Shown piece by piece: positions 52,603-53,269 of a DNA stretch of 64,000 nt. The position numbers and the translations under genes are program-made. Origin of the DNA: a virus; the IMG/VR virus record IMGVR_UViG_3300010389_000008. One strand, written 5' to 3'. The notes below the pieces were generated by a model. The model saw only the letters and a program-made list of their open reading frames with translations, was not told the origin of the DNA and made no database searches. Positions within the stretch are counted from its first letter, which is position 1, and each line of letters opens with the position of its first letter.

Positions 52603-52704
52603 TCAGCGAGGCATAACATGATCGCTTACTTCATCCGCATAATCTGCTAGATCCCTTGCTGCTTGAGCGATAACGCAGCAGAGGTGAAACAGTGCCTGGC
52701 GCAT
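52603..52704 (-). CDS. 33-aa hypothetical protein
   Basis: Own translation MRQALFHLCCVIAQAARDLADYADEVSDHVMPR. Confidence 0.35.
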   Translation of the reverse strand: MRQALFHLCCVIAQAARDLADYADEVSDHVMPR

Positions 52705-52786
52705 AACCGTGGGAATCGATTTCCCGCAGCTTAAATCCACCAATGGTGTCTAGCAGGAGCCGTTGCCACTACTGGCAGTGCCGGTG

Positions 52787-52963
52787 TCACCTTTGGTAGG
52801 CGTGGCCCCGATAGGTCAGGGTCGGATGTGTCAATTGCTCGTGGGCGATCTCCACATAGGGAACGCCCCGATAGCTCTTGAGGTGAAGCATCTGGGCGTC
52901 GTGAAGGGCTTGACGACGCTTCACGGCTTCCTGAATCAGGTGAAGGTGGTTTAGAACGTTCAT
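52787..52963 (-). CDS. DUF4278 protein, glutamine synthetase inactivating factor-like (58 aa)
   Basis: Two YRG motifs (SYRGVPY, LTYRGHAY); GGAGAG RBS at 52968-52973; riboswitch upstream. Confidence 0.85.
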   Translation of the reverse strand: MNVLNHLHLIQEAVKRRQALHDAQMLHLKSYRGVPYVEIAHEQLTHPTLTYRGHAYQR

Positions 52964-52980
52964 GGATCTCTCCATCAGCG

Positions 52981-53032
52981 CCCCGGTCCCCGTTGCATGA
53001 CCGGAGTCGACCTGCAGCACAAAGGCCCAACG
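52981..53032 (-). ncRNA. Glutamine-II riboswitch (Downstream-peptide motif)
   Basis: CGUUG...GCAG-GUCGACUCCGGUCAUG-CAACG-GGGACCGGGG; P1 CGUUG/CAACG; pseudoknot CUCCGGUC/GACCGGGG; P2 unusually short. Confidence 0.82.
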
Positions 53033-53039
53033 TGCTCTT

Positions 53040-53059
53040 AGTTTAGTAGTGATTGATAC
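53040..53059 (-). promoter_or_regulatory. NtcA box abutting a -10 element
   Basis: Minus strand GTA-TCAATCAC-TAC (53046-53059), then TAAACT (53040-53045), 7 nt before the riboswitch. Confidence 0.72.
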
Positions 53060-53167
53060 TGTTTGCCCCTATACAAAACGGGTGCATGCTCGTTTACATC
53101 GCGTATAGCCAGACGTATAGTCATTTCACTGAGTCCAGTCCAGGGCTGTGTTTTTAACTCTTGCGCT

Positions 53168-53214
53168 CCTGCATGGCATGCAGGGGGTCAGGAGTTCGAG
53201 TCTCCTTGGCTCCA
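53168..53214 (+). other. attP core: 3' half of tRNA-Ala(GGC)
   Basis: Anticodon arm CCTGC-ATGGCAT-GCAGG, T-arm AGGAG-TTCGAGT-CTCCT, acceptor 3' strand TGGCTCC-A with U70; no D-arm or 5' acceptor strand; next to the integrase. Confidence 0.88.
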
Positions 53215-53230
53215 TTTAAAAAACACAGTC

Positions 53231-53269
53231 AGGGCCTGGGATCTCAGCGATTTCAGGCCCTAATTTTTT
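53231..53269 (+). terminator. Terminator downstream of the att core
   Basis: AGGGCCTG...CAGGCCCT then AATTTTTT. Confidence 0.7.

Follow-up and report, generated by a model that had tools for sequence, protein, structure and literature searches.

The gifB gene of Synechocystis sp. PCC 6803, which encodes the glutamine synthetase (GS) inactivating factor (IF) IF17, responds to two inputs, 2-oxoglutarate through NtcA and glutamine through an RNA, and NtcA sites at or near the -10 element repress both gifA and gifB (PMC6212724). A two-input layout has also been published for PMM1846 of Prochlorococcus MED4, in which a perfect NtcA site overlaps the transcription start site (TSS) (PMC6212724) and which belongs to the NtcA iModulon (bioRxiv 10.64898/2026.04.15.718746). 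Here we describe a unit of this kind on the minus strand of a phage genome, the IMG/VR virus record IMGVR_UViG_3300010389_000008, of which the whole analysed stretch of 64,000 nucleotides (nt) is called the window below. The unit consists of an NtcA-type palindrome over a core promoter, a Glutamine-II (type 2, Downstream-peptide) riboswitch aptamer and a gene for a DUF4278-like peptide of 58 amino acids (aa), and it adjoins a phage attachment site (attP) and an integrase gene (int). A preliminary description made from the letters of the sequence had named the palindrome (hereafter the box), the -10 hexamer, the aptamer, the ribosome-binding site and the 58-aa open reading frame (ORF); all of them are present at the positions it gave, the three-part unit is real, and it does sit on an integrase-bearing phage. 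The explanation that we consider probable as a whole is that of a host-derived, self-contained nitrogen-status cassette beside attP, which places the 58-aa peptide under two-input control and is carried by an S-CBS4-like siphovirus with an integrase, whose hosts are picocyanobacteria of the Cyanobium and estuarine/freshwater Synechococcus type.

The PMM1846-type host loci (Klahn et al. 2018, PMC6212724) resemble the phage locus in having an NtcA palindrome that covers the core promoter or TSS, a Glutamine-II aptamer and a short YRG peptide. They differ from it in that the phage copy adjoins attP and int, has a box that abuts the -10 hexamer, 8 nt closer than in the sampled host loci, and is without a terminator. 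The likeness to gifB lies in the two inputs and in a DUF4278 segment, whereas the gifB aptamer is of the type 1 class and IF17 is a protein of 149 aa with an IF7-like, GS-binding C-terminus that is absent from the 58-aa phage peptide; only IF17 and IF7 are proven to inactivate GS. Cyanophage members of phrog_545, the protein family of the phage peptide (S-CBS4 gp007, S-RIM8 gp198 and homologs in S-CAM22, Syn19, S-H9-2 and S-H38), share the pattern MN.L...YRGV.Y but have no integrase at the locus. The glnA-type glutamine riboswitches of marine heterotroph phages (Melnitz, Pelagibacter phage Mosig; PMC9004378) are likewise phage-borne glutamine-sensing RNAs, yet they belong to another aptamer class, live in other hosts, control other genes (tmRNA) and are not accompanied by an NtcA operator.

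The Glutamine-II aptamer and its promoter

The Downstream-peptide motif of the preliminary description is borne out by the Rfam covariance model RF01704, which matches the locus over the full model (positions 1-60) with a score of 39.9 bits, above the gathering score of 33 (E-value 2.9e-6 for the window), and which gives the sole Rfam hit in the 64 kilobases (kb). The eight base pairs (bp) that had been described as a pseudoknot (CUCCGGUC with GACCGGGG) exist as a pairing, but they form the nested hairpin P2; the true pseudoknot joins CGUUG to CAACG, the latter lying in the P2 loop. Compared with the consensus CGUUC/GAACG, these strands carry a compensatory flip at the C5:G36 pair, which is among the few non-conserved pseudoknot pairs of the published crystal structure (PMC6698751). 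When 13 phage and host copies are aligned, compensatory double changes are found at 10 of the 16 helix pairs, in P1 as well as P2, and the blocks CGUU, GCAG (the linker) and AACGGGG are invariant and map onto the glutamine-pocket contacts of that structure. Metagenome relatives of the locus score 46.6 bits (L001 and L002, whose peptides are 98% identical to that of the window), 40.9 bits (L003-L005, 88%), 44.9 bits (L015) and 36.6 bits (L128). By these comparative measures we regard the aptamer as genuine.

The type 2 riboswitch behaves as an ON switch in green fluorescent protein fusions, and in-line probing found P1 and P2 preformed without ligand, the pseudoknot being the only ligand-dependent helix (PMC6698751). 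The switch first put forward for the window, in which a P2 strand re-pairs with the Shine-Dalgarno (SD) sequence, conflicts with that probing, and as its alternative helix uses the P2 strand it is disfavoured; by folding, this helix lies within 1.5 kcal/mol of the minimum free energy (MFE). When five phage relatives are folded at MFE, ACGUU, the 5' strand of the pseudoknot, pairs with AACGU of codons 2-3 and the SD with UCCAU at the start codon (an AUGGA/UCCAU hairpin), and these folds suggest an OFF state made of the two pairings together. Since host orthologs starting MNTL or MNIL are without AACGU, the ACGUU/AACGU pairing remains only a candidate for the OFF state, and it would not be general in hosts.

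Perfect GTA-N8-TAC boxes are common by chance, as the preliminary description had itself pointed out in naming position as the evidence, and the window holds 12 of them against 6.4 expected. Their position ahead of the aptamer is enriched in host and viral loci alike. Five picocyanobacterial genomes (WH7803, RCC307, WH8017, MIT S1220 and Cyanobium ATX 6A2) contain 14 Glutamine-II loci, ten of which have a perfect box no more than 35 nt upstream of the aptamer (binomial p about 3e-16, with a 70-nt stretch scanned); most of these boxes read GTAGCAACCGCTAC or nearly so and are close to the phage boxes. On the viral side, a DNA pattern for the aptamer group to which the phage copy belongs (group B, see below) was run over IMG/VR contigs and gave 118 matches, with 23 genuine cassettes and with 93 non-cassettes taken as control. 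A perfect box is present in 12 of the 23 cassettes as against 3 of the 93 other matches (Fisher p 7e-8).

All 25 distinct phage and host upstream regions carry a -10 hexamer, of the type TA[ACG]A[ACT]T, 6 nt upstream of ACGUUG, and the TSS that had been predicted near 53033 fits this fixed offset. The box abuts the -10 hexamer in the window and in five relatives (L128, L165, L184, L015 and L223); it lies 8 nt further upstream in hosts, in L243, L183, L211 and L227, and in L003, where it reads GTT-N8-TAC. Relative to the predicted TSS both positions are inside the core promoter, so that the geometry is that of a repressor site, as in gifA/gifB and PMM1846 (PMC6212724), and not that of an activator site at -41.5. 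Further upstream, a GTA-N8-AAC element ends 15 nt before the -10 hexamer in the window and in seven relatives (L128, L165, L184, L254, L256, L201 and L220), and it is retained even in relatives that have no box over the promoter. An element of the same type, GTAKC-N5-TGAAC, is conserved in four host loci with the CGUUC/GGAACG pseudoknot (L130, L131, L132 and L143), about 49 nt upstream of their perfect NtcA box, and similar sequences occur in L140 and L135.

Based on this arrangement we propose that the promoter of the cassette consists of a -10 hexamer alone and that the GTA-N8-TAC operator takes up its spacer and -35 region. Host NtcA, active at the high 2-oxoglutarate levels of nitrogen-poor cells, would block RNA polymerase at the box, and glutamine would stabilise the CGUUG/CAACG pseudoknot and so free the translation-initiation region, as in an ON switch. 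With both controls in place, synthesis of the peptide would require low 2-oxoglutarate and high glutamine together. The two-input AND logic that had been ascribed to the locus thus follows from its geometry together with published work on host loci, and it is by analogy with that host work that we expect NtcA repression and an ON switch of the phage copy.

Host origin and distribution of the cassette

Host Glutamine-II loci form two groups. In group A the pseudoknot is CGUUC/GGAACG, the peptides are of the MTLTYRG type and the box lies over the TSS, while group B combines CGUUG/GCAACG with MNVL-type peptides and the order box, 8 nt, -10 hexamer, 6 nt, aptamer. The phage cassette is of group B, and host loci with the same pseudoknot encode MNVL...YRGVPY orthologs; judging from these shared features, the whole cassette is host-derived.

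The window is a siphovirus-type phage genome that encodes a terminase, a major head protein, a ribonucleotide reductase (RNR) and an endolysin, together with a 1560-aa ORF of tape-measure size. Its nearest isolate is Synechococcus phage S-CBS4, which infects the estuarine strain CB0101 and whose major head protein is 58% identical to that of the window, and the sequencing runs containing window DNA are aquatic viral, freshwater and estuary metagenomes. Searched by megablast against deposited phages, the locus has no close DNA relative.

A search of viral contigs for related loci with the single peptide gave no match; the aptamer DNA pattern succeeded. At least 16 of the 23 viral cassettes, on S-CBS4-like contigs of IMG/VR, lie in the same gene order of RNR, int, att, cassette, DUF3310 and lysin. 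As the integrases of these contigs are 35-49% identical to that of the window, five of the contigs carrying the same tRNA-Ala core, the shared synteny marks the cassette as an old and fixed neighbour of the integration module in the S-CBS4-like clade. S-CBS4 itself is integrase-less and has an aptamer (44.9 bits) directly before the 39-aa homolog gp007, elsewhere in the genome, without a box and followed by a strong terminator. Two related contigs, L128 (CAJXNF010000050.1) and L015 (JAPOKD010000246.1), are binned in metagenome-assembled genomes labelled 'uncultured proteobacterium' and 'Planctomycetota'; the attP core, RNR, DUF3310 and an integrase homolog are common to them and the window phage, so they appear to be mis-binned viral DNA.

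Homologs of the peptide at 42-47% identity occur in 252 cyanomyovirus records. Among six cultured cyanomyoviruses sampled (S-H9-2, S-CAM22, Syn2, S-RIM8, Syn19 and S-H38; L007-L012), four have a perfect GTA-N8-TAC ahead of the peptide locus, and three have there a sub-threshold Glutamine-II-like match (23-27 bits) before another small ORF. The locus of these cyanomyoviruses has two small ORFs, of which the second encodes the peptide homolog, and another GAACGG stands just before that second ORF.

We found no paper in the literature that describes the phage cassette. The two-input circuit had been presented as novel for a temperate phage, a claim that we do not uphold: the layout is published for PMM1846 (PMC6212724) and is the norm in the host loci, and on the phage side the cyanomyoviruses with a perfect box at the peptide locus and the many IMG/VR contigs that carry the cassette speak against it. 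The kind of system is not new, its architecture having been published for hosts and being present, unremarked, in deposited cyanophage genomes.

The integration module beside the cassette

The features of the cassette and of its surroundings are collected in Table 1. On the opposite strand, some 110 nt upstream of the cassette, lies a tRNA-like element; it yields a sub-threshold Rfam tRNA hit of 22.6 bits and no ARAGORN call. A 28-nt piece of the attP core within it recurs exactly in 117 genome stretches, nearly all from Synechococcus, Prochlorococcus or Cyanobium, and the identity around this piece reaches 19 nt further on its left side and 2-3 nt further on its right. A scan for attB with a 49-nt query gave no match because the first two bases of the query are phage-specific.

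Table 1. Positions of the cassette, the parts of its aptamer and the adjoining integration module in the window
Feature	Position	Strand	Basis or remark
58-aa peptide gene, phrog_545, DUF4278-like	52787..52963	-	ATG at 52963
Shine-Dalgarno GGAG	52970..52973	-	6 nt before the ATG at 52963
Glutamine-II (type 2, Downstream-peptide) riboswitch aptamer	52981..53035	-	RF01704 match
Aptamer, pseudoknot 3' strand	52995-52991	-	RF01704
Aptamer, P2	53006-52999 with 52988-52981	-	RF01704
Aptamer, linker GCAG	53015-53012	-	RF01704
Aptamer, P1	about 53027-53016	-	RF01704
Aptamer, pseudoknot 5' strand	53032-53028	-	RF01704
-10 hexamer TAAACT	53040..53045	-	predicted TSS about 53033-53035
Perfect NtcA-type palindrome GTA-N8-TAC	53046..53059	-	directly abuts the -10 hexamer; centre about -19.5
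Upstream GTA-N8-AAC element tGTAtaggggcaAACa	53061..53074	-	read from sequence; possible second weak NtcA-type site or -35 region
Degenerate 5' third of tRNA-like element	53142-53167	+	diverged from tRNA-Ala(GGC)
attP core	53168..53217	+	47 nt match the 3' part of picocyanobacterial tRNA-Ala(GGC) exactly, with 2-3 nt more beyond it
13-bp hairpin between att core and int, T-runs on both strands	53231..53261		sequence
Divergent lambda-Int-like tyrosine recombinase, 367 aa	53402..54505	+	AF2 model and catalytic residues

The integrase ORF has no match in sequence searches of Pfam, PHROG, NCBIfam or the PDB. A fold search with its AF2 (AlphaFold2) model (pLDDT 79.8) matches tyrosine recombinases only, lambda Int first (Foldseek E-value 1.5e-4, probability 1.0), and residues R224, K248, R310, H337 and Y346 are invariant in five homologs; a Tyr stands in place of lambda Int His308, and the divergent family is common in this phage clade. 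The tRNA-derived core and the tyrosine recombinase together point to an attP-int module. As the cassette lies directly beside attP, it would be found in a prophage at the attR end, transcribed inward, and the hairpin between att and int would insulate it from transcription on the int side.

On the plus strand a strong sigma-70-like promoter (53093-53121, TTTACA-17-TATAGT, 10 of 12 matches) diverges from the cassette; transcription from it would run through the degenerate tRNA-like element into the hairpin, and in a prophage it would leave across attR. In the relatives L003-L005 a complete tRNA (66 bits, anticodon read as UCU, Arg; 3846-3919 in L003) and a different integrase replace the tRNA-Ala attP, and the integration module is swapped right at the promoter edge of the cassette. 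Nine Synechococcus or Cyanobium loci (L124, L106, L091, L047, L054, L115, L060, L094 and L082) have a distant tyrosine recombinase within 1-2 kb of tRNA-Ala(GGC), partial second copies of the tRNA occur in L116, L128 and L094, and the copies on contig QCUI01000033 are about 15 kb apart; to judge from these arrangements, tRNA-Ala(GGC) looks like an integration hotspot. On the other side of the cassette about 245 nt of poorly coding sequence, containing only a 46-aa ORF with a TTG start, separate the peptide gene from the DUF3310 gene on the same strand, and there is no terminator-like site after the peptide gene in window positions 52603-52786.

With this placement the cassette might be a riboswitch-gated lysogenic-conversion gene at the attR edge of a prophage, the effector of which, made only in a nitrogen-replete host, re-tunes nitrogen assimilation through a target new for DUF4278-like peptides, be it GS or something else. 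We put this forward tentatively and consider it rather unlikely.

The peptide, its target and alternative readings

The peptide begins MNVL and has a basic N-terminal helix and after it two YRGxxY motifs, SYRGVPY and TYRGHAY. Its residues 4-57 match profile positions 1-54 of the 55 in phrog_545, a family of unknown function, with an E-value of 4.1e-17. The ORF had been described as a DUF4278 gene, of which the YRGxxY motifs stand, while the phage peptide falls below the cut-off of Pfam: DUF4278 (PF14105) scores 17.6 bits against a gathering score of 25.3 (E-value 0.005) and covers profile positions 26-57 only, the YRG half. We call the peptide DUF4278-like because its Cyanobium ortholog L134, to which it is 46% identical (E-value 1e-14), passes the model at 29.4 bits; by these scores it is a divergent relative of DUF4278 and not a member at the level of Pfam. 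Third codon positions account for 17 of the 27 substitutions that separate the gene from that of L003, a bias which indicates that it is under coding selection. The AF2 model of the peptide has a confident helix at residues 3-31 and a weak C-terminal hairpin and is too small for a meaningful fold search, and a PDB sequence search with the peptide found no related solved structure.

How GS is regulated in marine and estuarine picocyanobacteria is still called unclear (PMC6316151), as is the role of the many YRG peptides under riboswitch control. According to the preliminary description the phage throttles GS when nitrogen is replete, the peptide being an inactivating factor like IF7 or IF17. 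This would agree with the regulatory layout, which is that of gifB with its NtcA repression and glutamine riboswitch (PMC6212724), with the DUF4278-like YRG region and with the abundance of arginine and lysine, in which the peptide is like the IFs, and reviews leave room for a co-evolution of picocyanobacterial GS with such short proteins (PMC6316151). DUF4278, however, is the N-terminal part of IF17 and is dispensable for GS inactivation, and the IF17-like proteins of picocyanobacteria are without the IF7-like C-terminus that binds GS (PMC6316151, PMC6212724); no IF-type regulation of GS is reported for marine picocyanobacteria in the literature cited there. The sub-threshold Pfam score of the phage peptide points the same way, and so does the size of the family: a profile search of 1.84 billion representatives gave 244 clusters, and among the best 150 nearly every one has a length of 35-130 aa, which leaves no room for a C-terminal domain as in IF17. 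A predicted complex of the phage peptide with Cyanobium GS (L145) scored 0.00, which is no answer and evidence neither way. An inactivating factor of GS is for these reasons unlikely, and most likely the peptide acts on some component of host nitrogen assimilation that need not be GS.

It is also conceivable that only the riboswitch matters and that the box is an inherited relic or a part of the promoter, so that NtcA does not regulate the phage copy. Several relatives and S-CBS4 keep aptamer and peptide without the box, three inner positions of the window box have departed from the host consensus, and its location 8 nt closer to the -10 hexamer than in hosts means that the geometry is not conserved. 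Against this, L128 and L015 have perfect boxes with a different N8, and across four diverged lineages the N8 varies between GTA and TAC half-sites that stay perfect; the enrichment of the box in the viral cassettes over the control, and the overlap of both geometries with the core promoter, likewise argue for an operator. A cassette governed by its riboswitch alone therefore seems to us quite improbable. That the cassette instead feeds nitrogen status into the lysis-lysogeny decision or the early genes of the phage, whether by action of the peptide on phage regulators or by translation of the ORF controlling read-through into the DUF3310 operon, would suit its constant place beside int and attP in this clade, the same-strand genes that follow without a terminator and the insulating hairpin upstream, but it is very improbable, as the same peptide family is found in host chromosomes, in lytic T4-like cyanomyoviruses and in the integrase-less S-CBS4, where a strong terminator follows the gene, all of which argues for a host-directed, stand-alone function.

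Several observations weigh against the two-input, self-contained nitrogen-status cassette that we prefer. P1 is weakened in the window copy, in which U stands at 53019 in place of the G of L001, and this is the copy that scores 39.9 bits as compared with 46.6. The accessibility of the SD is unchanged when the pseudoknot strands are withheld from pairing, and folding energies do not separate the ON and OFF states. The box over the promoter is missing in five relatives (L254, L256, L201, L220 and L261) as well as in S-CBS4, so that the operator is dispensable in some lineages. As no intrinsic terminator was found 3' of the 58-aa ORF, the unit may not be self-contained at that end. All sequencing runs that match the window are DNA, with no RNA run among them, and no integrated copy of the phage was found; lysogeny is what we infer from the attP-int module.

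These peptides occur in phages from three morphotype groups, some of which have kept the host operator and aptamer too. Together with the fixation of the unit beside attP in one clade, this argues that the peptide influences host physiology strongly and in a transferable way, so that it offers a good starting point in the search for its target. By analogy with the host loci, the cassette would show in clean natural form how a phage gene can be made subject to two metabolites of its host, 2-oxoglutarate via NtcA and glutamine via an RNA. Should it indeed be a lysogenic-conversion gene, its retention beside int and attP across deeply diverged cyanosiphoviruses would indicate that nitrogen status is a key variable in the lysogeny of picocyanobacteria.

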